A stretch of DNA of 64,000 nt from Acidobacteriota bacterium (GTDB lineage Bacteria; Acidobacteriota; UBA6911). The position numbers and the translations under genes were made by a program. Each line of letters begins with the position of its first letter. Position 1 is the first letter of the stretch. Positions 33,193 to 58,997 of this stretch are shown here, piece by piece. The stretch covers positions 4,754 through 68,753 of the forward strand of contig QHZE01000458.1 of assembly GCA_003225335.1 (NCBI GenBank), given 5' to 3'. The notes beneath the pieces were generated by a model. The model searched no databases. It worked only from the letters and a program-made list of their open reading frames with translations, and was not told where the DNA came from.

Positions 33193-33427
33193 TTCATAAA
33201 TACGGTAACGAATTTCGCCCCAGCGGGGCGCGTGGGAGCTTAGCCAGGGGTGAGCGCTTTTTGCGAACCCTGGAACAGGGCCTGCGTGACCAACGCGCCC
33301 CGGCAGGGGCAGCCAGGGGTTCGCAAAAAACGCTCACCCCTGGCTAATTTAATTTCCTCACACCCCTTCGGGGTGGAAGAGCTTTGACCCATAGGCGGGG
33401 CGGAATACGTTACCGTATTTATGGCCG
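33193..33427. mobile_element. MITE family B copy (about 235 bp)
   Basis: The TIRs are cataaatacggtaacg ... cgttaccgtatttatg. The internal inverted repeat is ttagccaggggtgagcgc...gcgctcacccctggctaa. Confidence 0.7.
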
Positions 33428-46700: not shown

Positions 46701-46776
46701 TGGAGGCGCCGAGCGGATTCGAACCGCTGCATAAAGGTTTTGCAGACCTCTCCCTTAGCCACTTGGGTACGGCGCC
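46701..46776 (-). tRNA. tRNA-Cys (anticodon GCA), 73 nt + encoded CCA
   Basis: A manual fold gives: acceptor GGCGCCG/CGGCGCC; U8 A9; D-stem CCC/GGG; anticodon stem GAGGU/ACCUU; loop CUGCAAA (anticodon GCA); T-arm AGCGG-TTCGAAT-CCGCT; discriminator U73, a Cys identity element; CCA. Confidence 0.9.
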
Positions 46777-47070: not shown

Positions 47071-48213
47071 TCAGGCTCCAATTTCCAAAAGGGTGGCATC
47101 AAGGGGCAAAATATCCTCGGCATCCATCGGGGATTCCTGGCGACACGTATCCTGGATTTTGCGCGCCTCTTCAAGATTCTCAAAGAAGACGTCGAGTATC
47201 TGGGGATCGAAGTGGGAGCCACGGCCTTTGAGCATTGCTTCGCAGGCTCGTTCGTTGCTGAGGGCCTCCTTGTACGGCCGCGGGGTAGTCAGAGCATCAA
47301 ACACATCCGCAACAGCACAGATACGCCCGTACAACGGGATCTCTTCTCCGGCGAGCCCATAAGGGTAGCCCGTACCATCCCACTTCTCGTGATGGGAAAG
47401 GGCAATGCTCTCCCCTGCTTGCAGGAGCTTCGAGAGAGAGCCGTGTAGGATACAAGCGCCGATGACAGTGTGGCGTTTCATAATGGCCCATTCAACCGGA
47501 TTGAGCTTGCCGGCCTTCAGCAGGATGGCGTCAGGAATGCCGATCTTTCCCACATCATGCATCGGACTGGCATAGCGTAGGATCTCCACCTCGCCTGGAG
47601 GCAAGTCGAGGCTCCGGCCAATAAGGGCGCAGTAGTGGCTCATGCGTTGAATGTGAGCTGCCGTGTTCCCGTCTTTGTATTCTGCCGCCACAGCCAGACG
47701 TTGGATGGTGTCGAGGTGAGCGTCGTAGGCGCTCCGTTGAGCCTCAGCCATGGCCTGCAACGCCTGGTGGAGATCGGCCGTGCGCTTGCGCACCGTTTGC
47801 TCCAGGAGGGCTTGATTCCTCCTAAGCGCGTCCCGGGCTTCCTTCGTCTTCAGCAAAGACGACAGACGGACTCCGAGTTCTGTCAGGTCGACCGGTTTGG
47901 AGATAAAGTCATTTGCGCCCGCTTCGACCGCACGGAGCCGGGACTGTTTGCCGGACAGAGCCGTCACCATAACGATCGGGATCTCGTCAAGATCCGGATT
48001 ATTGCGAATTTGTTTGGCCACTTCGAAGCCGTCCATTCCGGGCATCGTCGCATCCAGAAGTACGAGGTCTATCTCCAGCTTCACCTTGGCCAGCGCTTCG
48101 ATTCCGTCCCGAGCACATTCAGACTCGTACCCTAAACAAGACACCATTGAGGCCAGCGTCTCTCTGTTGGGCTCTTCGTCATCTACGATTAAAATCTGTT
48201 TAAGGCGGTGCAT
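47071..48213 (-). CDS. Response regulator with an HD-GYP phosphodiesterase output domain (REC + HD-GYP)
   Basis: The REC domain is present (ILIVDDEEPNRE...D..MPGMDG...K). The HD-GYP motifs are present (HHEKWDGTGYPYGL). The start is at the internal ATG 48213, because the ORF track's 48273 is a GTG. Confidence 0.8.
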   Translation of the reverse strand: MHRLKQILIVDDEEPNRETLASMVSCLGYESECARDGIEALAKVKLEIDLVLLDATMPGMDGFEVAKQIRNNPDLDEIPIVMVTALSGKQSRLRAVEAGANDFISKPVDLTELGVRLSSLLKTKEARDALRRNQALLEQTVRKRTADLHQALQAMAEAQRSAYDAHLDTIQRLAVAAEYKDGNTAAHIQRMSHYCALIGRSLDLPPGEVEILRYASPMHDVGKIGIPDAILLKAGKLNPVEWAIMKRHTVIGACILHGSLSKLLQAGESIALSHHEKWDGTGYPYGLAGEEIPLYGRICAVADVFDALTTPRPYKEALSNERACEAMLKGRGSHFDPQILDVFFENLEEARKIQDTCRQESPMDAEDILPLDATLLEIGA

Positions 48214-48707
48214 CAATTTACTTTTTTCCCTATCCAGGGCAGATTCAGCTCTGACACCCTTGAAAATGGGCACAGAATGCAGTCCTGTACCCTGAGGAAC
48301 CGGAGGGCTCTGCTTGATCGTCCCGCCGAGTCCGACACGTTAGACGTGAACTTGAGACTTGGCGCTTATTCTCCAGAAGGAATCATGTGAAAGTCCGTGT
48401 CCCGTAGACTTGATCGGCAGGTTTGTACTCCAATTAGCAACCTTTCGGGGACAAAATTCGACCCTGGGCGCACCGGAACCAAGGAAACGACTCCGGCACT
48501 GATCGACTTCTGGACTTAAGCTCTTCGACTTGCTGAGGTTAGGATGGAGGTCGAAACGGAATTCGACCCCGCGCTTTCAACCTTGGCAATGCCTCCGGCA
48601 GCACAAAGCAGGCAGGTGAAACGTCAAAACACCGGCGCATGGCCGTCTCGGCCATGACCGGCTTAGATCCCCACTTCCCACGGGCGGGACACCCGTGCCA
48701 CGAGCCT

Positions 48708-48758: not shown

Positions 48759-50120
48759 TCATGGTTGGCTCGATTCGAGGTCGGAAGTGTATTGGTTGAT
48801 TTTATCCTCGACGGCAATGACTTCTACGTCGATGGTTTGGGCGCCGAACAGCGGTTTCAAGGCGGCGCGCGCCGCATCCAGAAGCGGCAGCGCGGTTTCA
48901 GAGAGACGTAAAATGACGGTGCCATCGGCGCGCTGGTGCAGACCGAACTGCGGAATAGGAAACTGGCCGAGAGCATGCGTGACATCGATATTGTTGATCC
49001 ATTCTTCGCTTTCCGTGCGAAACCGAACAGGTGGCCGGCCGGATAGACCGGTCAGCACTGGCGCCTCTGGGCTGAAAGAAAGCGAAGCGTAATCACCAGT
49101 GCGGTAACGCAGCAACGGCAGGCAAAAATTGAATCCACCGGTAAGCGTGATTTCGCCTCTTTCGCCGACGTTCACCGGATGCCCGGCCTTGTCGAGGATT
49201 TCGACGTAGAGCATCGGTTGCAACAAGACATGACCGCCGACCGCCGGATCGAACACGGCTACCGGACCTGCTTCGTTGAGCGAGTAGACGTCGAGCACGG
49301 GACAACCGAAGCGTTCCTCGAGACGTCGCCTCAAGCCGGGCGACAACATCATCGAGACCGAAATCAAAGCGCGCGGCCTCGCCGTGATCGGCAGGTTTAG
49401 AAGCTCAGCAAACGAAATTGGATCGCCCCCATAGACTTCTGGCGCCAGCGCGTCGAGATATCGCGCCCGGTCATCGGGGTCGCGCCAATCGTTCGGATGC
49501 AGATTGATCTTGGCCAATCCTGATTCGTCCATCGTCGGCGTCACCGACACATACGTGAAGCACTTGCGCTGATGGCCCAACAGCACGACACCCACTTGTC
49601 CGCCCCCGTGTGTGAGGTCAACGCCGAACCTTCGCAACGCCCGTTTGTGAAAAGCGAGATAACGACCGGCAACCATGGGGTGCGAGGCGATAAGCATGGG
49701 ATGGCCGGAAGTACCGGTAGTGCGGAAATTGATGAGCCGATCCAATTCGACCGAATCAGGAACGAAACGGGCGATGTCGGCGGCAAAATCGGCGCGCGAT
49801 ACGGTTGGTAGATCTTCAAAACGCGGCGGGGGCGAGCCGAGCGCTCGATAGAACGGAACGTCTTCAAAAGTACGCGCAACAAACGCTGTTGCCCAAGACG
49901 GCATGCAGCCCCGCGACCAACCCACAGCGGCTTCCAGGACTTCGCGTTCAAAAATCCGCAGCGCCTCGATATCCGCCGCCGTGAGGCGGTTGCCGCTTTG
50001 ATTGCGATAGACGGGCGCGGCGGGATGCTCGCGCATGAATTCGAGCATGCGCCGTCCCGCTTCCGTAAGCGTAGGGTAACGATCGTGATCGGTGACGAGG
50101 TCGCTCATTCGCGCGTCCAC
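48759..50120 (-). CDS. Adenylate-forming enzyme, phenylacetate-CoA ligase (PaaK)/coenzyme F390 synthetase-like
   Basis: 453 aa. ...NFRTTGTSGHPMLIASH... is a P-loop-like adenylation motif. The overall architecture is PaaK/F390-synthetase. It is the last gene of the minus-strand operon and overlaps the upstream gene by 16 nt. Confidence 0.7.
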   Translation of the reverse strand: MDARMSDLVTDHDRYPTLTEAGRRMLEFMREHPAAPVYRNQSGNRLTAADIEALRIFEREVLEAAVGWSRGCMPSWATAFVARTFEDVPFYRALGSPPPRFEDLPTVSRADFAADIARFVPDSVELDRLINFRTTGTSGHPMLIASHPMVAGRYLAFHKRALRRFGVDLTHGGGQVGVVLLGHQRKCFTYVSVTPTMDESGLAKINLHPNDWRDPDDRARYLDALAPEVYGGDPISFAELLNLPITARPRALISVSMMLSPGLRRRLEERFGCPVLDVYSLNEAGPVAVFDPAVGGHVLLQPMLYVEILDKAGHPVNVGERGEITLTGGFNFCLPLLRYRTGDYASLSFSPEAPVLTGLSGRPPVRFRTESEEWINNIDVTHALGQFPIPQFGLHQRADGTVILRLSETALPLLDAARAALKPLFGAQTIDVEVIAVEDKINQYTSDLESSQP

Positions 50121-50689
50121 TTGTCGGCCGATTCTTCGGCGGCCTTCTTGGCCAACGCCTCGCGGATGGCACGCGCGCGGCGCTCGGCGGCGCGACTCGC
50201 TTCCAGCAGACGGCGGCGCTCGGTACTGCTCAGGCTGGAGAGCCGATCTGTGGCTTGCGCAATGGTCTCGCGCGCCGGGCGATAGTTGAGACGCGCCAAT
50301 ACCACGCGCGCAAGCTCTTCGCGCCGATCGGTGTCGTTCACGAATTTATGCGCCGCCGTGGCCGCAGCCAGTTCGGTAACGGTTTCGTCGAGCACGCGCA
50401 GCGCGTCCGCTTGCGGGATTTTTACGGACACAAACCATTCATCCGCGAGCAGCCAAACCGTAATCATTGCAAGCGCAAGCCGATTTCGATCGATCTTCGC
50501 GTCCGCTCCATGAAAGCGCATGAGCGCGGCAGCCGGGGCTCGAGCGCCGTACAGAGACAAAAGATCGTTCACCAAGGCCGGAACAAACACGCGACCCGTT
50601 GTACCGATCCGTGGTTCATCGAGAAAATCAGGCGGCGTCTCGGCCAGACGTCGCGTCAGCTTTTCCAGTATTGGGCCTTGTCGTTCCAT
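50105..50689 (-). CDS. Hypothetical protein (194 aa, C-terminal charged/coiled region)
   Basis: No recognisable domain. It is translationally coupled, with its start 4 nt after the rSAM stop and an overlap with the next gene. Confidence 0.4.
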   Translation of the reverse strand: MERQGPILEKLTRRLAETPPDFLDEPRIGTTGRVFVPALVNDLLSLYGARAPAAALMRFHGADAKIDRNRLALAMITVWLLADEWFVSVKIPQADALRVLDETVTELAAATAAHKFVNDTDRREELARVVLARLNYRPARETIAQATDRLSSLSSTERRRLLEASRAAERRARAIREALAKKAAEESADKWTRE

Positions 50690-50692
50690 GGT

Positions 50693-51661
50693 TCAGACGG
50701 CGAACTTGGCAAAAACATGGGTAGAAGGACAATCGTTGCACACCGGCGCCGGCTTGCGCTCGCGCGCCGTCGCGAAACTCCCGGGCAAGGAGAGCAAACC
50801 GTCGACGGAGCAAACGGCCTTTAGCGGCAGACCGAAATTCTCTGACGTGAAACTACATGGCGAGACACGGCCGCGCTCATCGACGAACAGGAAGCTCTCG
50901 CCGGGGGCACAATCGTTGACCGCAAGACTGATGTCGTGCGTGCTCGCGTCGATCCTTCTGAGATACTGCCCGCTTCCACATAAGCGCACACCCCGGCGAG
51001 CGAGTCTTGAACGCAGCCTGGGCAATATCGCCGACAGGGTTTGCGAATCTTGGCGCCGTAAACGGTGTGCGGAGAAGAATGCCGGTCGATCGCGTCCACC
51101 CAGTTGATTGAAGGTGATCTCATCGAATCCCCATCCGGCGAGCGCTTCACACAAGTCGGCGAACATCGTCAAATTGTCGCGCATGAGCACGACATTGGCA
51201 CGCAGTTTTAGCTGCGCCGCCATTGCAGTACGCGCCTGTGCGAGCGTTTGCACCGCTTCACGAAGTTGGTGCCAACCTCCAGGCCAACCTCTCACGTGCT
51301 CGTGAAATTCGGCGAAGCCGTCCACGCTCACGGTAAGCTCGGAAAAGCATTCAAGAATGTGACGCTGCACGCGCCCCAGGTGAAGCGTCGTGCCATTAGT
51401 CGTCGCGCTGACTTCAATCTGGAAAGTTTGACGCAATCGGTGCGAGACCTCGAACACAGGACGCCAAAGCAACGGTTCACCGCCGAGCCAACTCAAGAGG
51501 ATGCGTTCACCGGTCGTTCGTCGATACTCGCCCAGCACTCGACAAAACCGTTCCACCATCTGCTCATCCACGTCTTGCCGTGAGCGGGAAAGCGTTCGGT
51601 CATAGGCGCAGAAAGGGCATGAGCGATTGCAGCGTTCGGTGACGCGCCAAACGACGATCAT
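50693..51661 (-). CDS. Radical SAM enzyme with a C-terminal SPASM/twitch-like Cys-rich region
   Basis: N-terminal CNRSCPFC (CxxxCxxC). C-terminal Cys cluster ...CGSGQY...CAPGE...SPCSF...CNDCPSTH. The ATG overlaps the upstream stop (ATGA). Confidence 0.75.
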   Translation of the reverse strand: MIVVWRVTERCNRSCPFCAYDRTLSRSRQDVDEQMVERFCRVLGEYRRTTGERILLSWLGGEPLLWRPVFEVSHRLRQTFQIEVSATTNGTTLHLGRVQRHILECFSELTVSVDGFAEFHEHVRGWPGGWHQLREAVQTLAQARTAMAAQLKLRANVVLMRDNLTMFADLCEALAGWGFDEITFNQLGGRDRPAFFSAHRLRRQDSQTLSAILPRLRSRLARRGVRLCGSGQYLRRIDASTHDISLAVNDCAPGESFLFVDERGRVSPCSFTSENFGLPLKAVCSVDGLLSLPGSFATARERKPAPVCNDCPSTHVFAKFAV

Positions 51662-53484
51662 GGGTGAGTCTCCGCCCGGGTCGCCTTTTCTTTTGCTGCA
51701 TAGTGGCGCCGGCTGAACGAGCGCGCGAATTCGAGCAAATCCTCAAATTTCGCGATGGCGTGTATCTCCCATCCCTGTTCCCGGCGTGCCCGCTTCAAGT
51801 CCTCGAATACCGGCAAGTTCCGCCCGGCTTTTTTTTGATCCCACGCCGCCGGCAGGTTCAACGCCATCGTCCCGCCCGCGCGGCCTGTTGCGAGCGCATT
51901 GGCGGAGATATCCCATCCGCTATTGCCGCGCTCGTCACGCTCGAACATGGTCGTTATGCCGTCGTCGGAAATCATCAGGATGTGGACGGGCCGGCTGTTC
52001 GCATTCCTGCCTGCATACGTGTCGCGCAGCTGATGAATCGGAAAACACGTCCCTCCACCGTAGAACCCCGTGAGCACCTTCAGGATTTTGTCTTCGTCGC
52101 GCACGAATCCATCGGTGTGCAAGACCTGGTTCTTGCCGCTCCATAACGTCACCTGCACTCTTGAGCCGACGCGCAACGCCGACAGCGCAATGATTGCGCC
52201 GGCCAGCGTGAGATACGACGTTTGCCGCTGCGGGTTTGGCATGGAACCGGAACTGTCGACGTACATATCGAGATCGACCGGCATCCGGTCCGGGGTTCGG
52301 CCCGTTTCGCGGCCATATAATCGCCGCACCGTGGTGAGGCCGGGAATAGGCCGAGGCGACTGCATCACGCTCTGCAGCCAGTCAACTTCGTCTAATGGAT
52401 CGCCGATGTCCCAAGGCTCCAGACCCTCCATTTGCGGTTCGTGCGATTCCGGTATCTCGCGGGTCGGGAATCGGACGATATGCGGCAAGGCCCGTTCGCG
52501 GTAATAGCGAACCGCGATGTCGTGATCGGACAGTTTGATCCCGGCCGCTTTCAATATCTCGCCGTATTCGAAAGGCTCGCGTGCCTGGCCCGAAGAGTTC
52601 GACGATTTCTCTCGTCCTTCAGGGTCCTCGCCAACGGGTTCATCGAGACCGGAGATGCTCGGATCTTCCGCCGGATGGACGGCGCCTTCAATCTCATCCG
52701 CCTCGATGTCCTGCGCGCCGGACGGCTCGCATCCTTCGGCGGCATCCTTCGTGTCGTGCAAATAGTCGAGCGCCTTTTTATTTTCAGTGTCCTCAACCAG
52801 ATACGGCAGTAAGAGGGTTGCGAACTTTCCGGCGCCCCTCAGCCAGTCATTAGCGTATACACGGATCAATCGCGCGCCCAGCCAGGCATCGGTATCAAGA
52901 CGCTCATCGGCGCTGCCGCCGCCCAGCGTGCCTTTGTCCAATTTCCACAAGTTTTCATAAACCCGCATGTAAAGCGTCCACACGCCGCTTTGCTTCGCCT
53001 GCCCGTCGCCCGAGGCTTGCGCCAGCCGCTTGTATATATCCGCCATGCGCAAGTCGGCCTGGCGTTGCAATCGATCATTGATGTAGAGATCGGTGTAGAG
53101 ATTGGCAACCATCGGCGCGTGCCGCTCGAGTGTGGGCAATGCCCGCCGGATTCGAGCGAGCAACCGAAACTGATCGGTGGCGTTGCCCGGAGCGAGCACG
53201 TGATGGCCAATCTCATGCGCGAGAATCTCAACGGCGTAGTCGTCGAGGCCGAGGCTGTGTACCGTTTCGAGATCCACGACCACGCTTTGATCGGCGAGGC
53301 GGATCATAGCGAAGCTGCCGCTCAGGCCTTCCTGTGCCGCTTCCACGCGGCTCTCGCACAAGCGCGCATCACGCAACCGCGTGAACTTGCTCCACACTGC
53401 GACTGCTTGCGGCCATGCCGCGCGCCAGCGCTCGATCAGTGCCGAGCGCTTAGCAAGGAATTCGGCGTCGCGCAAAACGCTCAT
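51658..53484 (-). CDS. vWA domain protein with an N-terminal HExxH (zincin-like) region
   Basis: N-terminal AHEIGHHVLAP (HExxH). C-terminal MIDAS DLDMYVDSSGSM plus the vWA fold. The start at 53484 overlaps the upstream stop (ATGA). Confidence 0.7.
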   Translation of the reverse strand: MSVLRDAEFLAKRSALIERWRAAWPQAVAVWSKFTRLRDARLCESRVEAAQEGLSGSFAMIRLADQSVVVDLETVHSLGLDDYAVEILAHEIGHHVLAPGNATDQFRLLARIRRALPTLERHAPMVANLYTDLYINDRLQRQADLRMADIYKRLAQASGDGQAKQSGVWTLYMRVYENLWKLDKGTLGGGSADERLDTDAWLGARLIRVYANDWLRGAGKFATLLLPYLVEDTENKKALDYLHDTKDAAEGCEPSGAQDIEADEIEGAVHPAEDPSISGLDEPVGEDPEGREKSSNSSGQAREPFEYGEILKAAGIKLSDHDIAVRYYRERALPHIVRFPTREIPESHEPQMEGLEPWDIGDPLDEVDWLQSVMQSPRPIPGLTTVRRLYGRETGRTPDRMPVDLDMYVDSSGSMPNPQRQTSYLTLAGAIIALSALRVGSRVQVTLWSGKNQVLHTDGFVRDEDKILKVLTGFYGGGTCFPIHQLRDTYAGRNANSRPVHILMISDDGITTMFERDERGNSGWDISANALATGRAGGTMALNLPAAWDQKKAGRNLPVFEDLKRARREQGWEIHAIAKFEDLLEFARSFSRRHYAAKEKATRAETHP

Positions 53485-54482
53485 AGCAGAGGAAACAACC
53501 GTATAGTGAAGGTGTAGAGGGAAGTGACCGCTATGGTATGTTCGTTGCACGTCACAGCCAGTCCGTCCTCCGGCAAGTCGAGCTCGACTTGACGTCCGCC
53601 CAACAAAAGCTTCGATCCTTTTAGCGGCGCCGTTTTTGCGCGCAGGTCGATCTTCGAGCCATCGAATTCTTCGGCCGTGGCCGGATGTAGTACCGCGCCG
53701 TAGGCATCAGCGATCAGGAAACTGAATCGATCGAAGCTCTTTACGCAGAAACCTTCGGCGTTGGCGCGAACTTCGGGCGGCGCGCGAAATATCCCGCCAA
53801 AACCCGTGAACTGTCCGATTTCGATACCCTGTAACGCACGACGCTTTTCAACGGCCGGCGCCCACCAGGGGTCAGCCAGGAAGTTTTCGCGCACGGACGT
53901 CCACTTATCGCCCGCGGCTGCTCCCACGGCGGCAAGCGCAACGTTTTCGGGCAGCTGGTCAGCAACCCGAATCGCGCCCAAGCGAAAGTGCGCGAGGCCA
54001 CCGCGCCACGCCATGATCTGCCCTATTGCTCGCAAGCATGAGACGGAATCGGCGTATTTGGCTAAATCAGTCATGCCCTGTATCCATTGATCGGCGCGCG
54101 CGTTCGGTACCTTGCCGATATTCACCGCTGCATTGGTAAGCGCGCCGAGCACTTCCACCGGCTGTTCCGACACCAGGCGCGCGTATTGGGGCGCCAGCGC
54201 TTGCCAGACGCGATCGATAAGCTCGCTGCGGGCGCCTGGACCCGCAAGCGCTTGACCAACGAGCTCGAGCCCAATGTCGTACGCCACGACGGCGACCGGC
54301 GCCACACGTTCTGGAGCGATCTCGGCGACGGAGCGTACTACCGCATCCACACTCGTGCGCAAGAAGGCGGCGAAGGCCATGCTGTCGAGCGCCGGATAGT
54401 GATGTTTCGCCTCCGCGACGCGGGCATTGAACTGCGCCCGGCCGGCAGCGAGCACTCGAGCCAAGGGATCAGAGATGGTCAT
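53481..54482 (-). CDS. Hypothetical protein (333 aa) encoded between the MoxR and vWA genes
   Basis: No recognisable motif. Its position matches the third component seen in ternary vWA-MoxR systems. Its start abuts the MoxR stop. Confidence 0.4.
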   Translation of the reverse strand: MTISDPLARVLAAGRAQFNARVAEAKHHYPALDSMAFAAFLRTSVDAVVRSVAEIAPERVAPVAVVAYDIGLELVGQALAGPGARSELIDRVWQALAPQYARLVSEQPVEVLGALTNAAVNIGKVPNARADQWIQGMTDLAKYADSVSCLRAIGQIMAWRGGLAHFRLGAIRVADQLPENVALAAVGAAAGDKWTSVRENFLADPWWAPAVEKRRALQGIEIGQFTGFGGIFRAPPEVRANAEGFCVKSFDRFSFLIADAYGAVLHPATAEEFDGSKIDLRAKTAPLKGSKLLLGGRQVELDLPEDGLAVTCNEHTIAVTSLYTFTIRLFPLL

Positions 54483-56063
54483 TTATTGTGAGCGCAGCCA
54501 GTGTAGATAGTTGGTATAGCGCTGATGCAGATATTTAAGCTTGAGCAGATCGTCGTACAGGTGACCATATAATTTGCGGCCCTTTACGAGTTCGCCGATC
54601 AAGCGCTCGATCTTGGAAAGCCTTGAACGCGTCTCGCGCTCGCTGAGACCGTCCAATCCCTTGGCAAAATCGGCGGAGAGTTCGCCGACCGCATCGTTGC
54701 GATCAAGATCGAGACGGTTGTACTCGTCGTTGGCGAGATCGAACAAGCGGCGCAGCCATCCCAGACGGTCTGTGCGATACGCTGCATTCTCCGGAAGACC
54801 GAAGAACGGCGCATCCAGATCCGGCTGCAGTTTGTCGTGCAACACGAACGGCAGAGTCTGGCGCACGTCTTCGAGCTCCACGGTTCGGTTACCCCGAAAA
54901 TATGTCAGCGCCTTGGCAAAAATCAGCAGAGTCATCAGATTGCGCACCGACAAACCGTTGCGCGTCTGACATCCCAGGTCCTTGAGCCGATCGCGGCCGT
55001 TATCCGCTGCCACCATCTGACCCCAGTCGATACCGGAAAGCCGCGCGGTATCTTTCGTCATGTATTCGAACTGGGCGCCTGCGGTTTCAAAGAGCTCGAA
55101 CTGGCTGGCGAAGAATTCCAACCGGCGGCGCACCTCGACAGGTACTTCCACCTGGAGGATCTGCTCGCCGAGACGTTCGACCTCTTTTTCGGTGAATACA
55201 ATCTCGCGTGGCACAACCTCTTCGGGTCGAATGTTTTCTTCGATACGCACCAACAGATCACCGAGGAAGCGCGGGTTAAACGCCAGCGCCTGTACGATCA
55301 CGTCGATGCGGTCGCGCAGCGCTTCGATTACCTGGTAAGTGCCGCCGCCCTGGTCGTCGTTCGCCGTCAGGTACCACGCGGATTCCGGGCATTCGTAGAT
55401 ATGGTTCAGCACCTCCGCGTAGTTGTCCCCCATGACCGTCAACAACGCGCTTTGCGTGCGCGTGGGGATACGGTTGTATTCATCGACAATTTTCACCCGC
55501 ATCGACAACCACGAGCGCCACGCGATGCGGATGTCGTTCATGCTCTGCGCGTTCACCAAATCCGCCGGCAACGGATTGCCGAGCAAATCGGCGATCGTCA
55601 TTTGCGGATGTCCATGCTGCATTGCGCGGCGTACTTCGCGCACTGGATAACCGGCCAAGACGCCCATCAAAACTGCGCTTGCCGTTTTGCCTCGGCCTGC
55701 ACCGCCGACGAACAAGCATTTGCGCCGGGTCGCGAATGTCAACAGCGGGAACAAGATGAAGCTGGAGTAACTTTGAGCGGAGGGGAGCGTCAGCGTTCGT
55801 TTGCTGTCTCCAACCGCATATGTCTGCGCCGGTCCATCGTTGTACTCGACATCGTAGTGCGGGCTGATGACCGCATTGTTCACGATCCAGAAGTAAGCCT
55901 GCCGAAGTTTTTCATCGAGGGCCTGACTTCCTTCCTCGACCGCGGCGCCCGTTTGAATTGGTCCCTCATACAGGTCTGCAACGTCGAATTGACGAGTCTT
56001 CGGCGGGGCTTTCGGATTGGTGGGAGCTTGGGATACGCGCTGAAAAATGTTGAAAGGTGCCAT
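54483..56063 (-). CDS. MoxR-like AAA+ ATPase (with N- and C-terminal extensions)
   Basis: Walker A LFVGGAGRGKTASAV. Walker B KIVDEYNRI. The MoxR-type lid ...LSVRNLMTLLIFAKALTYFRG. AGGACGA RBS. Confidence 0.75.
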   Translation of the reverse strand: MAPFNIFQRVSQAPTNPKAPPKTRQFDVADLYEGPIQTGAAVEEGSQALDEKLRQAYFWIVNNAVISPHYDVEYNDGPAQTYAVGDSKRTLTLPSAQSYSSFILFPLLTFATRRKCLFVGGAGRGKTASAVLMGVLAGYPVREVRRAMQHGHPQMTIADLLGNPLPADLVNAQSMNDIRIAWRSWLSMRVKIVDEYNRIPTRTQSALLTVMGDNYAEVLNHIYECPESAWYLTANDDQGGGTYQVIEALRDRIDVIVQALAFNPRFLGDLLVRIEENIRPEEVVPREIVFTEKEVERLGEQILQVEVPVEVRRRLEFFASQFELFETAGAQFEYMTKDTARLSGIDWGQMVAADNGRDRLKDLGCQTRNGLSVRNLMTLLIFAKALTYFRGNRTVELEDVRQTLPFVLHDKLQPDLDAPFFGLPENAAYRTDRLGWLRRLFDLANDEYNRLDLDRNDAVGELSADFAKGLDGLSERETRSRLSKIERLIGELVKGRKLYGHLYDDLLKLKYLHQRYTNYLHWLRSQ

Positions 56064-56147
56064 CGTTTCGTCCTGTATCGTGTCCTCGGACTTCTGATTG
56101 TCGAAGTCCGAGGACCACTGACCTCACCGCACTTACTAGGGATTTCG

Positions 56148-56385
56148 CAAATACGGTAACCTAACCGCTCCGGAGCGGTAGGAACTTAGCCAGGGGTGAG
56201 CGCTTTTGCGAACCCCTGGAACCCGTGCCTACGCGACCAACGCGCCCCGGCAGGGGCGCGGGGAACTCCTGCAACCCCTGCCGGGGTGCGTATCGTTGTT
56301 CCTATTCTACCCGGGGGCTCGCTTCGCTCACCCCCAGCTAAGCTCCTTGCGCCCCGCCGGGGCGAAATGCGTTACCGTTTTATGG
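56148..56385. mobile_element. MITE family B copy inserted between two genes of the operon; it supplies the stop codon of the 776-aa gene
   Basis: The TIRs are gcaaatacggtaac ... gttaccgttttatgg. The TAA stop of the 56380-58710 gene is formed by the terminal nucleotides 56380-56382. Confidence 0.7.
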
Positions 56386-58710
56386 ATCACCTACTTCGTT
56401 CGGAAACTCGCGAATCGTTCTCTCCTGAAGCTCGGTTTCGATCGCGCGCGGCGACCGTATCTTGCGCACGAGATCGATCGCAGCGGGCGCTTCAAAACCT
56501 CGCGATCTCAAGAAACAAGCTGCCACCGTTCCGGCCCGCCCCAAGCCGCCGACGCAGTGAACCAGTACATTTTCCCCATCCTTCAGTTGTTTCGACAGTC
56601 GGGAAACAGCATCTAATAGTTCGGTTCGACCCGGCACGCGTCCATCAACGGCAGGCAAATGCTCCACTTCGATCCCGAGCGCGCTGTACCGGGACAACAG
56701 ATCGTTTACGCCGTATCGGTGGAATTCGTCGTCAGTCAACAAACAAATAACTCTATCGATATGCTCGTTCATTAAGACTCTTAAATCCTCGTCGAGCGAA
56801 CGTCCATAATCGCGACGCCCCGGCATAATAGTAAGGCCGAGTCTGCCTGGGGTGGTGATAGCCTGAGGCAGCCAATCGATACGAAGCGGCCCAACTCGTG
56901 AAGCGCGCTGTGTCAAGGCATCGGCAGCGAGGCACGCCGAGTACAGTGCCCACCGTTTTTGCCATATGTTTGACTCTTGAAAACTCAGCGTATGGACGGC
57001 GTACCGAATATGACCGATTAACCATTGAGAGGGGTCACGATCAGCGTGAACCAGCTCGGGATAGTGCTCGCGCAGCAGGCCGACGATCCGGTAGGCGCGT
57101 CTGAGCTCCGGATGGGTCACCGCAGCGTTCAGCGCCGGCAGTGGCGCCGCCAGATCTTCGATCGCTATCAACAGTTCGCTTATTTGGATCGCTTGAGCGA
57201 AGTCGTGCTCATTTTCGATCCTGGTGAAAATATAGAGCAGGTCGTTTTCAAGTTTGATCAAGTCCCGCAACACATGGCCGCGGTGCGCATGAAAGAAATC
57301 GATCAGCCACACATTCGCTTGGCCGTCGATAATGATGTTTGCGCCATTGAGATCGCCGTGCACGTATGAGAAATAGTGGGAACGCGGGATGCGCGGCAAG
57401 GCGGCCAGCGTTTGACCGTAGAACTTCACAATATTTGGCGCGTTTCTGCCACCCGGAAATTCCAATGAATCGGTCCCGGCCGGCGCGCTGAGAACCTCTC
57501 CGACCCTGTGCGCAACCGAAGACGCCCATTCCGGTTTGAAGTCGTAATACTGAAAGAGATCCGACCGTTCGGCCTGCGCGGCACGATAAAAGCGGCCCAG
57601 CTGATCAACGAATACTGAATCAAGTATTCGTTTGACGTCTTGATCAGACGCACCGGCTTCATAGATTTTCTGAAACGAACGGGAATCGCCGCGTCCCATG
57701 GCGGCATAGCGATATTTGATGGCGCCCCGTGTTTCCAGATCCGCAAAGTCCGCGACACGCGGAGCCGAATTCCCCAGCACCGCTTCAATCCGCTCAAACG
57801 ATGTACGCTCCTTGCCGATGAGCGCCTTTGGGCCGATCTTCACGACATGCGGCACCTGCTCATGGCCATGGAGGTCGATGCTTTTTGTTCCGAGAACAAA
57901 GTTGCCAGAGAATCCGCCATCCAATGTGCGAACGTCGACATGTCGACAACCGCGGAACAGGTAACGCACTAACTTGCGGTCGGTATCGCTAAGCGCCGTT
58001 TTGTCGAGCACCTGTACGTCGGGATGTTTTTGGCTGAATCCAATAAGCGGCGCGTCCTCGACCTTCCCGCCAAGGAACTCGATGAATTCGCCTACCGACG
58101 GTATAACATCCACCCCAAGAATACGTTCGAGCTGATCAAGCGCCACGAAGTGATTTTCGCGCGACGAGCTTGCCGTGAGCGCGGAACACACCGCCAGGCG
58201 GAAGTGCGGATAACGACTGCGCAGATCGTAGCCGAGGAAAGTGATCTTCGCTTCCGTCCACACGCCCATCAATCCCACGCATACCGCAGTTGTGCAATAA
58301 GGGCGCAGGACGTCGTCCAGGTGTGCATCGACAAAGTTGCTTAGCGTTGTCGCGTCAACGATTTCGAGGCGCTTGTTCGCGTGTACGTTTTGGATGTCAA
58401 AGACAAATTCGGCTCCAATCGAATTTCGTAAACAATGCCGGCCAAATTGCTCCAGATGAGACCGCTGCTTCGGGTCGCTGGAATCATGCCAGTCGCGAAC
58501 ATGAATGACCTTGAGGATTTCATCGGGTTGAGCATGCGCCCACGTGATCATGCGAGCGACGGGCCCCTCCGCCGGATTCCTTCCCAACAAACGCAGTGAT
58601 TCGTCGTGACCGACGTGCAATGCATTCGGTAACCCTTCGAAACGGCCAACCGGACCGACGAAGTCGTTCTGCAGGCAGTCGGTTATAAGGATCGAGGTGT
58701 TCGCCGACAT
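56380..58710 (-). CDS. Three-domain fusion protein: isochorismatase-like hydrolase + APH/kinase-like domain + protein-tyrosine/dual-specificity phosphatase (776 aa)
   Basis: N-terminus: ILITDCLQNDF ... TTAVCVGLMG (isochorismatase/nicotinamidase-type motifs with a Cys). Middle: SYVHGDLNGANIIID...WLIDFF (Brenner HGD...N and DF kinase motifs). C-terminus: VLVHCVGGLGRAGT (HCx5R PTP loop). Confidence 0.7.
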   Translation of the reverse strand: MSANTSILITDCLQNDFVGPVGRFEGLPNALHVGHDESLRLLGRNPAEGPVARMITWAHAQPDEILKVIHVRDWHDSSDPKQRSHLEQFGRHCLRNSIGAEFVFDIQNVHANKRLEIVDATTLSNFVDAHLDDVLRPYCTTAVCVGLMGVWTEAKITFLGYDLRSRYPHFRLAVCSALTASSSRENHFVALDQLERILGVDVIPSVGEFIEFLGGKVEDAPLIGFSQKHPDVQVLDKTALSDTDRKLVRYLFRGCRHVDVRTLDGGFSGNFVLGTKSIDLHGHEQVPHVVKIGPKALIGKERTSFERIEAVLGNSAPRVADFADLETRGAIKYRYAAMGRGDSRSFQKIYEAGASDQDVKRILDSVFVDQLGRFYRAAQAERSDLFQYYDFKPEWASSVAHRVGEVLSAPAGTDSLEFPGGRNAPNIVKFYGQTLAALPRIPRSHYFSYVHGDLNGANIIIDGQANVWLIDFFHAHRGHVLRDLIKLENDLLYIFTRIENEHDFAQAIQISELLIAIEDLAAPLPALNAAVTHPELRRAYRIVGLLREHYPELVHADRDPSQWLIGHIRYAVHTLSFQESNIWQKRWALYSACLAADALTQRASRVGPLRIDWLPQAITTPGRLGLTIMPGRRDYGRSLDEDLRVLMNEHIDRVICLLTDDEFHRYGVNDLLSRYSALGIEVEHLPAVDGRVPGRTELLDAVSRLSKQLKDGENVLVHCVGGLGRAGTVAACFLRSRGFEAPAAIDLVRKIRSPRAIETELQERTIREFPNEVGDP

Positions 58711-58721
58711 GGCGCTCGGAG

Positions 58722-58997
58722 TTATGAGTTTTTCGCTGGTGTTTGAACGGATTGTTCAGCTCGTCGTTTTTCATCGACAAGTCTGGCTTCGGTTATTAAT
58801 TCGTCACATTTGATAAGTAGCGGGAACACCTCGCCGGTCCTATTCCGCGGAATCTCCTCCGCCCCTTCGGTTGTCAGCGTTTCCGTGGACGTCAGCAAAT
58901 AAATACGGGTGGGCGCTCGACGGGGCAGGGGTTGGCCATTTGCTATCGGGAAATGTGTCTTAAATCCAATATCGGCCGGTTTGATTCCGATAACCAT
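58722..58997 (-). CDS. Small hypothetical protein (91 aa) immediately upstream (11 nt) of the 776-aa gene
   Basis: ATG start with no recognisable family. It is a possible first gene of the operon. Confidence 0.3.
   Translation of the reverse strand: MVIGIKPADIGFKTHFPIANGQPLPRRAPTRIYLLTSTETLTTEGAEEIPRNRTGEVFPLLIKCDELITEARLVDEKRRAEQSVQTPAKNS

Follow-up and report, generated by a model that had tools for sequence, protein, structure and literature searches.

A widespread bacterial gene system joins a MoxR-type ATPase and a putative zincin-vWA protein to two orphan protein families and a PaaK-type ligase

We analyzed a stretch of 64,000 nucleotides (called the window below) from contig QHZE01000458.1, part of a metagenome-assembled genome (MAG) of an Acidobacteriota bacterium. 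An original prediction, made from the letters of this stretch, had singled out three neighboring genes: a MoxR-type AAA+ ATPase, a protein of 333 residues that resembled nothing familiar, and a protein with a domain of the von Willebrand factor A type (vWA) that carries an HExxH motif near its N-terminus. We found that these genes are the front part of a widespread system of five to eight genes. In the window, the system comprises six open reading frames (ORFs) that lie head to tail on the minus strand, running from position 56063 down to 48759:

54483..56063, minus strand: MoxR-type AAA+ ATPase, 526 residues (public name “ATPase”, PYU99591.1)
53481..54482, minus strand: X333, an orphan protein of 333 residues
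51658..53484, minus strand: zincin-vWA protein, 608 residues, with a zincin-like N-terminal domain, a linker and a divergent vWA domain
50693..51661, minus strand: radical SAM enzyme, 322 residues (Pfam Radical_SAM, 7.5e-13), an optional component
50105..50689, minus strand: Y194, an orphan helical protein of 194 residues
48759..50108, minus strand: PaaK-type adenylate-forming (ANL) ligase, 449 residues (public name “capsule biosynthesis protein CapK”)

Public names for proteins of the operon also include “hypothetical protein”. The three-gene reading is too narrow, because the radical SAM, Y194 and ligase genes are coupled to the first three and because the gene order is conserved across phyla. 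The ATG of X333 lies directly 3' of the ATPase stop codon (TAA followed by ATG), the stop codon of X333 overlaps the start of the vWA gene as ATGA, the radical SAM gene overlaps the vWA stop codon in the same way, a gap of 3 nucleotides precedes Y194, and the ligase ATG at 50108 again overlaps the Y194 stop codon as ATGA. In other words, all five junctions are gaps of 0 to 3 nucleotides or ATGA overlaps, and the six genes form one translationally coupled operon of which the three genes first noted are the 5' half. The GC content of the operon is the same as that of the rest of the window. The three predicted ORFs are indeed on the minus strand where they had been placed, with a corrected start for one of them. 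The longest-ORF version of the vWA gene begins at a GTG at 53550 and would encode 630 residues; we rejected this reading. The true start is almost certainly the ATG at 53484, given its ATGA overlap with the X333 stop codon, the 608 residues of a separate gene call on a sister contig (GCA_009772875.1, 99.6% identical), and the alignment of homologues, which begins at about residue 14.

The distribution of the system was established with a synteny scan of one genome per species, in which an HExxH peptide served as the search pattern and which yielded 80 loci. About 80 loci share the order ATPase, X333, zincin-vWA, optional radical SAM enzyme, Y194 and ligase. They belong to Bacteroidota (Flavobacterium), Actinomycetota, Myxococcota, Leptospiraceae and Riflebacteria, to Beta- and Gammaproteobacteria, to Verrucomicrobiota, Chloroflexota and Gemmatimonadota, to Acidobacteriota and Planctomycetota, and to other taxa; contigs from other sources, annotated with Pfam, have the same gene order. 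The core of ATPase, X333, zincin-vWA protein, Y194 and ligase is a widespread chromosomal system, found in the same order in at least 12 phyla. Components were counted over the 45 loci with at least 5.5 kb of sequence on both sides (“complete loci”):

AAA+ ATPase: 43 of 45 complete loci
X333: 40 of 45 by BLAST, and more by hidden Markov model (HMM)
Y194: 39 of 45
PaaK-type ligase: 39 of 45
NadR-like gene: 31 of 45
PnuC: 19 of 45
radical SAM enzyme: 12 of 45
TCAD9 tri-domain gene: 3 of 45; the window carries one too

In 43 of these loci, the vWA gene stands two genes downstream of the ATPase gene in the same operon, and matches to an X333 profile fall between the two in nearly all loci. The operon neighbors in the Pfam-annotated contigs are ordinary metabolic genes, the system is seemingly near-universal in Janthinobacterium, and a tblastn search with the vWA protein through 50,697 phage and 72,556 plasmid records gave nothing. 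Conservation across phyla differs sharply between components, with identities of 58-84% for the ATPase, 36-74% for the zincin-vWA protein, 29-69% for the ligase, 23-71% for Y194 and 16-58% for X333. The window's operon resembles the one in the betaproteobacterium Paucimonas lemoignei (84% identity for the ATPase and 74% for the vWA protein) more than it does those of other Acidobacteria MAGs (69/53% and 63/46%; compared loci L004, L024 and L034), which points to a fairly recent lateral transfer of the acidobacterial operon. Two loci hold distant versions with a vWA protein 26% identical to that of the window, in which HExxH and the metal-ion-dependent adhesion site (MIDAS) are kept. One, L083, has a radical SAM-like gene, an unassigned 342-residue gene, the ATPase, a 286-residue gene where X333 would be expected, and the gene for the vWA protein, opposite an Hsp70-like gene; the other, L082, has the vWA gene, a 194-residue gene and the ligase, together with aminotransferase-like and HemN-like radical SAM ORFs that were assigned by eye only. 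In two Leptospiraceae loci, genes for a CDF cation-efflux protein and a ZupT zinc transporter lie between the zincin-vWA and Y194 genes (L053:11664-13180 and L076:11682-13547).

The original prediction held that the vWA protein has a MIDAS and that the HEIGHH sequence marks a metallopeptidase-like module fused N-terminally to it, and made the second claim depend on conservation of HExxH in orthologues. Both claims were borne out. The protein can be divided into an N-terminal domain (residues ~1-245), an acidic disordered linker (~245-320) and a vWA domain (~395-600) that is C-terminal, with nothing after it. Its motifs are located as follows:

residues 90-95, nucleotides 53200-53217, minus strand: HEIGHH, candidate zincin metal-binding and catalytic motif, in a helix (residues 84-96) that follows a three-stranded sheet
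residues 410-414, nucleotides 52243-52257, minus strand: DSSGS of the MIDAS, with the D-x-S-x-S signature
residues 505-509, nucleotides 51958-51972, minus strand: ISDDG, containing the MIDAS partner Asp (D507), invariant in alignment A2

Because the locus scan had itself used an HExxH peptide, motif conservation was judged only from a HMMER search of 1.84 billion representative sequences without motif filter, which gave 82 full-length relatives with 31-66% identity. The whole HExxH is present at the aligned position in 78 of the 82 relatives; H90, E91 and H94 are each found in 79 and G93 in 81, and all four residues are invariant in alignment A2. The whole DxSxS occurs in 80 relatives (D410 in 81, S412 in all 82, S414 in 81). 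N128, D132, E177 and D507 are conserved in at least 90% of the relatives; the third metal ligand may be D132, which is invariant, or else N128 or E177, which are nearly so. For the MIDAS Thr, most sequences have a GGGT loop, although the alignment is not strict there. Even relatives at 26% identity retain HEVGH and DxSGS. The predicted model of the N-terminal domain resembles zincin peptidases and has the zincin fold, in which a mixed sheet is followed by the active-site helix and by a lower subdomain of helices, so that we regard it as a putative zincin-like peptidase domain. Sequence profiles gave little more: the zincin domain matched no Pfam peptidase family, with weak, motif-only matches to M48 (0.0025, in one relative) and to a PHROG “metallo-protease” family (0.006). 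The vWA domain matched Pfam VWA_2 weakly (E 1e-3, with a score of 20 bits where 27 are required), as it did the TRAP vWA structure 4hql (E 0.038), and its homologues carry the NCBI name “VWA domain-containing protein”. A protein of 1114 residues in the representative library (P0285) has a T4 Rnl1-type RNA ligase (PF09511, 1e-37) fused N-terminally to a complete zincin-vWA protein, whose motifs are kept as HEVGHH and DCSGS.

Our literature search found no paper describing a MoxR, zincin-vWA and ligase gene set or its function. The zincin-vWA fusion itself is not new, because jumbo phages (group 2.2) already show this architecture next to MoxR: authors have pointed out vWA co-chaperones there that carry a metallopeptidase at the N-terminus, and the pair was proposed to act in virion assembly (PMC7824862). 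The likeness lies in the combination of MoxR-type ATPase and vWA genes and in the HExxH domain placed N-terminally to the vWA domain in a polypeptide of ~600-700 residues; the best structural matches of our N-terminal domain model in BFVD are phage “VWFA domain containing” proteins of 635-699 residues (probability 0.82-1.0). We take these phage proteins to correspond to the Pfam DUF2201_N plus DUF2201 architecture. When the zincin and vWA domains were scanned separately against Pfam, neither gave a DUF2201_N or DUF2201 match even at an E-value of 10. Unlike the phage pair, with which it has no sequence match, the present system is chromosomal and has four to five extra conserved partners (X333, Y194, the ligase and NadR/PnuC).

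The assignment of the first gene to the MoxR type was confirmed. Its nucleotide-binding motifs are at the following positions, their invariance being judged over 30 orthologues from many phyla:

residues 120-127, nucleotides 55683-55706, minus strand: Walker A, GGAGRGKT (G120, G123, G125, K126 and T127 invariant)
residues 190-195, nucleotides 55479-55496, minus strand: Walker B, VKIVDE (D194 and E195 invariant)

The ATPase scores above the cutoff for Pfam AAA_3 (28.7 bits against 27, 1.3e-6), aligning to profile positions 37-129 only, and for AAA_lid_2 (22.8 bits against 22.7). With a family profile, the best PDB match is the MoxR structure 2r44 (1.2e-9), followed by the lid of the Mg-chelatase subunit ChlI. 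The protein is about 200 residues longer than typical MoxR proteins and its Pfam match is marginal; judged by its sequence, it is a divergent, unusually long MoxR-type AAA+ ATPase.

X333 is a genuine gene. That it might lack homologues had been named as grounds for discarding it; in fact it has more than 200, with 45-75% identity, and these keep its syntenic position. An AlphaFold2 model with a mean predicted local distance difference test (pLDDT) score of 91 consists of an N-terminal domain of 12 helices and a C-terminal beta domain. The protein evolves fast, and its identity between loci goes down to 16-25%. No match was found in Pfam, NCBIfam, PADLOC, PHROGs or PDB, and likewise when 20 diverse orthologues were scanned singly. 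In one protein of 927 residues (P0250), X333 and the zincin-vWA protein are naturally fused, which argues for physical contact between the two and supports their being partners in a complex.

Y194, the second orphan family, has a conserved N-terminal part of 140 residues, the conserved motifs DxDRREELAR, PxGE and DR, and a tail of near-constant pattern, A-x-E-[A/S]-A-x-K-[Y/W]-x-R-E-COOH:

nucleotides 50108-50140, minus strand: C-terminal tail of Y194, AEESADKWTRE-COOH

Among 59 homologues, 54 end in Glu or Asp (45 of them in RE), and 40 have Tyr or Trp at position -4. Four actinobacterial tails end in Tyr or Val, with the aromatic residue at -4 kept in three. Since the tail ends vary in Actinobacteria, the near-constant features are an aromatic residue and its set spacing from the free C-terminus. 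Y194 matched nothing in Pfam or PDB, nor did 27 orthologues scanned singly, and it gave no match in scans of NCBIfam, PADLOC and PHROGs.

The Y194 gene is adjacent to and overlaps that of the ligase, and the pair is doubled in L024. There, in an Acidobacteria MAG, two consecutive Y194-ligase pairs with a radical SAM gene between them occupy L024:11725-16735. The ligase profile matches PaaK structures at values from 9e-24 (phenylacetate-CoA ligases) to 3e-17, and also the PaaK-like ligases AjiA1 (6wuq) and NatL2 (6siw), which presumably act without CoA. Residues ~220-420 align to PaaK and the N-terminal ~200 residues are family-specific. The adenylation motifs A3, A5, A7, A8 and A10 are conserved, among them T[ST]GT[ST]G, Y-S-x-x-E, Y-R-T-G-D and G-R, and the C-terminal Lys (K436) is present in 21 of 26 sequences. 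No named NCBIfam equivalog reaches its cutoff, the best being the DVU_1553 family with 75 against 300 bits. From these sequence features, we assign the ligase to the PaaK family of ANL enzymes, and it is probably active in adenylation. A function in capsule synthesis, as its public name would have it, was rejected, there being no capsule genes nearby.

The radical SAM enzyme has its CxxxCxxC site as CNRSCPFC (residues 11-18) and a Cys-rich C-terminus. It aligns end to end with the mycofactocin maturase MftC, below cutoff, and its best NCBIfam matches are SPASM/twitch-type maturases, all far below cutoff. The gene is present in only ~27% of the complete loci, mostly directly upstream of Y194. 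The only PADLOC matches in the operon are those of this enzyme to generic pVip (2.8e-15); we rejected a viperin reading, since the match is to the generic core only and the enzyme is optional.

A further conserved feature is the genomic link to nicotinamide-riboside salvage (nadR and pnuC), which is robust. Alignments of the NadR-like proteins to TIGR01526 (1e-53) are full-length, and the PnuC proteins score above the TIGR01528 cutoff. Proteobacteria have these genes downstream of the ligase, Flavobacterium and Actinomycetota have them upstream of the ATPase, and one planctomycete has them in divergent orientation; this varied placement means that the link is not the frozen accident of one lineage. 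Neither NadR nor PnuC is encoded in the 64-kb window, which has another gene next to the operon:

56380..58710, minus strand: accessory nicotinamidase-like/TCAD9/phosphatase protein, 776 residues, with a gap of 316 nucleotides to the ATPase gene

By Pfam, this protein has a TCAD9 kinase-like domain (2.8e-61), a DSP-type phosphatase domain (CDKN3/PTP-SAK/DSPc) and a weak N-terminal Isochorismatase match; among PDB sequences it matches KAP phosphatase (7e-17) and the nicotinamidases 1ilw and 3s2s (about 1e-3). A TCAD9 gene of this kind adjoins or sits within the system in L007, L036, L048 and L051, lying between Y194 and the ligase in L036 and abutting NadR in L007 and L051. At the 5' end of the accessory gene, ~130 bp (58696-58825) are without an equivalent in the sister contig, whose version of the gene encodes 828 residues; the difference may be an indel or small insertion that affects the N-terminus of the protein.

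In characterized MoxR-vWA pairs, the MIDAS of the vWA protein holds a peptide of the client while the ATPase ring remodels that client (summarized in PMC7159879). Our tentative reading of the system, to which we give somewhat less than an even chance, is that a MoxR/vWA remodeling machine with a built-in peptidase processes Y194, and that the ligase activates a carboxylate. By analogy with the characterized pairs, the ATPase ring would drive conformational work through the vWA co-chaperone, which would bind X333 and hold a peptide of the client protein in its intact MIDAS. The likeliest client would be the co-encoded Y194, whose C-terminal tail of fixed length resembles a docking or processing site; the complex of MoxR, vWA protein and X333 may capture Y194 by this tail, and the N-terminal zincin domain, with its conserved catalytic Glu, would then cleave it. 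The PaaK-type ligase would adenylate a carboxylate and join it to an amine or hydroxyl acceptor, its simplest substrate being the C-terminal carboxylate of Y194 or of a cleavage product. Where present, the radical SAM enzyme might modify Y194 further, and NadR/PnuC, or in the window the nicotinamidase-like/kinase-like/phosphatase protein, may tie the system to pyridine-nucleotide supply. This mechanism is built on gene context; we count the fusion in P0250, the co-duplication of Y194 and ligase, and the conservation of the tail in its support, along with the coupling of the six genes and their recurring order, the MoxR assignment, the conserved MIDAS and HExxH, the adenylation motifs of the ligase, the place of the radical SAM gene before Y194, the link to NadR and PnuC, and a published precedent for zincin, small-protein and radical SAM modules attached to vWA-MoxR systems (PMC7159879).

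Several points weigh against it. The role of Y194 as client is based on gene context only, and with 194 residues and a conserved globular part Y194 is unlike typical small precursor peptides. The acidic terminus is absent in Actinobacteria, so the Glu side chain is not a universal MIDAS ligand or ligation site. A few loci (L034, L037 and L083) have the ATPase, X333 and vWA genes without Y194 or ligase nearby. A small-molecule acid would be an equally good candidate for the substrate of the ligase. The case for the vWA domain is the weaker one, its fold matches being weak and the complete MIDAS signature its main basis. Lastly, NadR/PnuC, the strongest contextual signal, is left without explanation.

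That last signal is best used by an alternative in which the operon encodes a machine for the maturation of a metal center or cofactor, i.e., for metal insertion or cofactor assembly on a client, which is the classical role of MoxR-vWA pairs such as CobST, BchID, NorQD and CoxDE. HExxH would then serve mainly for metal binding and hand-over, and the ligase, NadR, PnuC, nicotinamidase-like protein and radical SAM enzyme would build a cofactor derived from a pyridine nucleotide, much as the nickel-pincer nucleotide is made from nicotinic acid adenine dinucleotide (NaAD). The MoxR/ChlI type of the ATPase fits this alternative, which accounts best for NadR/PnuC, for the nicotinamidase-like, kinase-like and phosphatase domains, and for the CDF and ZupT zinc transporter genes inside the operon at the two Leptospiraceae loci; adenylation of a nicotinate-type carboxylate by an ANL ligase would mirror the chemistry of NadE and LarE. 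Very high conservation, ordinary metabolic neighbors and absence from phages and plasmids also fit a housekeeping function. However, the conserved set includes neither a candidate client enzyme nor a catalytic chelatase subunit, the zinc transporters are confined to one lineage, and the radical SAM enzyme is found in only about 27% of loci. Moreover, in HExxH the conservation of the catalytic Glu equals that of the two His, which points to hydrolysis and not to metal binding only. We consider this alternative unlikely.

A second alternative starts from the same zincin, tail and radical SAM enzyme as our preferred reading and assumes a pathway for a peptide-derived product, as for pyrroloquinoline quinone (PQQ), mycofactocin or FxSxx-COOH-like peptides. 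Y194 would be a precursor that is cross-linked or otherwise modified at its conserved C-terminal residues, cut by the zincin and finished by the ligase, with MoxR-vWA as the chaperone that presents it and a released signal, toxin or cofactor as the outcome. PMC7159879 describes a published analogue that adjoins vWA-MoxR systems and comes nearest to this idea, an add-on in which a zincin is accompanied by a radical SAM enzyme and by a small protein whose C-terminus is conserved. The likeness extends to a stand-alone radical SAM enzyme beside the small protein and to a zincin predicted to process the conserved C-terminus; here, too, the operon combines a zincin peptidase, a conserved tail that contains Glu and an aromatic residue, and a Cys-rich, MftC-like (below cutoff) radical SAM enzyme encoded directly upstream of Y194. 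Unlike in the FxSxx-COOH module, the tail is K[Y/W]xRE (with no FxSxx, RxD or poly-acidic stretch), the protein has 194 residues and the zincin is fused to the vWA domain. The radical SAM enzyme is absent from ~3/4 of the loci, so cross-linking is not the core chemistry; Y194 is long, with 140 conserved N-terminal residues; the actinobacterial tails differ at their terminal residues; and the conserved set includes no exporter except the nicotinamide-riboside transporter PnuC. This makes a peptide product, in our estimate, a doubtful outcome of the system.

The original prediction had instead likened the three genes to vWA-MoxR ternary systems, with X333 as a possible new third member. The defining components of such systems are VMAP, iSTAND, FtsH or a beta-propeller fused to the vWA protein, along with effectors C-terminal to the vWA domain (PMC7159879; PMC8195603). 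With those of Kaur and colleagues from 2020 (PMC7159879), above all the “simple” FtsH type and the attached peptide-processing modules, the present operon shares a MoxR and vWA core with a system-specific extra protein, a helical region before the vWA domain, and, as we count it, the TCAD9-domain gene next door. Of the proposal, the MoxR assignment and the zincin-vWA fusion stand; the ternary organization does not, the core having more than three genes and the extra domain lying N-terminally to the vWA domain, whereas in the published ternary systems the effector domains are C-terminal to it (PMC8195603). Nor could X333 be accepted as the third member: it is not of the VMAP, iSTAND or FtsH type, and unlike a VMAP-type protein, it and 19 diverse orthologues have no Pfam match. 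A second, FtsH-type AAA+ gene was not found in the operon or within ~10 kb in the Pfam-annotated loci, and the vWA protein carries no fused beta-propeller. The operon is further set apart from the systems of PMC7159879 by its constant partners, a PaaK-type ligase and NadR/PnuC, and TCAD, PnuC, NadR and PaaK are all absent from the main text and one supplement of that paper and from PMC8195603.

The functional counterpart of that proposal would be a ternary conflict system directed against invaders, with X333 as a new sensor or effector and, in one variant, NadR/PnuC buffering a loss of NAD+. A MoxR-vWA pair with a fast-evolving third protein (16-58% identity, against 58-84% for the ATPase) would suit such a system, as would a patchy distribution with clear lateral transfer, the neighboring gene with TCAD9 (which in its Pfam name refers to ternary-complex association) and a PTP-SAK-type phosphatase, and the weak prokaryotic-viperin matches of the radical SAM enzyme. 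We nevertheless judge it improbable: X333 matches neither VMAP, iSTAND and FtsH nor any effector domain, the vWA domain is not followed by an effector domain, and no toxin-like or NAD-degrading domain was recognized. PADLOC-DB 2.0 was negative for the ATPase, X333, the vWA protein, Y194, the ligase and the TCAD9 protein, the vWA protein was not found among the phage and plasmid records searched, and the system lies among metabolic neighbors and not in defense islands, besides being near-universal in Janthinobacterium.

The most far-reaching interpretation is that the operon is a prokaryotic pathway for protein C-terminal ligation (tagging), an ANL-based analogue of pupylation or ubiquitination present in at least 12 phyla; we think this very improbable. 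Y194 would be the modifier, the PaaK-type enzyme would make an acyl-adenylate of its fixed-length tail for attachment to target amines, processing or de-conjugation would fall to the peptidase activity of the zincin domain, and the complex of MoxR, vWA protein and X333 would be the reader and unfoldase that recognizes the tag through the MIDAS, with flux tied to NAD+ and nicotinamide-riboside status. The Pup-proteasome system has a small protein with a tail ending in Glu or Gln, a ligase that activates a carboxylate, a tail hydrolase, and an AAA+ protein that recognizes the tagged protein. The roles of tail protein, ligase, hydrolase and AAA+ ATPase could be matched to these, as a functional analogy only: the protein folds have nothing in common, and unlike in the Pup system, the ligase is of the ANL/PaaK type and not the glutamine-synthetase-like PafA, the zincin is not Dop, MoxR is not Mpa, and there are no proteasome genes.

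The surroundings of the operon in the window were also inspected. Its upstream region has two features:

56064..56379, minus strand: intergenic leader of the operon, 316 nucleotides, with GC-rich palindromes
56082-56115: perfect 13-bp hairpin in the leader, 19 nucleotides upstream of the ATPase ATG

A scan for riboswitches and other RNAs found no Rfam family in the leader, nor upstream of the operon in six loci, and a scan for consensus promoters and terminators was uninformative, with fewer matches than in shuffled sequence. An 89-bp piece of the leader has a second copy at 33224-33310 (87.6%, detected by way of the sister contig, L002) and may thus belong to a small extragenic element of the repeated kind. 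Downstream, after a gap of 485 nucleotides, a minus-strand gene (47071-48273) encodes a response regulator with an HD-GYP (HD_5) phosphodiesterase domain for cyclic di-GMP; it was rejected as a component, as it is not conserved beside the operon in other loci. The homology with the sister contig ends exactly at a tRNA-Cys(GCA) gene (46701-46776, minus strand). Past the tRNA, the sister contig encodes a phage-type integrase and an HTH_17 excisionase (L002:16784-18917), and the sequence in the window differs; the tRNA gene is thus a site of integration whose occupancy differs between the two assemblies.

MoxR-vWA pairs are common, but the client is known for few of them. In this case the pair is accompanied by partners that form a fixed set, with a built-in zincin domain, two orphan families absent from Pfam, a PaaK-type ligase and, mostly, NadR/PnuC, in a system that amounts to thousands of sequences across at least a dozen phyla. 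Cultivable bacteria such as Janthinobacterium, Flavobacterium, Collimonas and Hahella are among its hosts. Should the tail of Y194 be what the ligase acts on, the system would represent a new chemistry of protein modification; should it be a pyridine nucleotide, the system would represent a new cofactor pathway.

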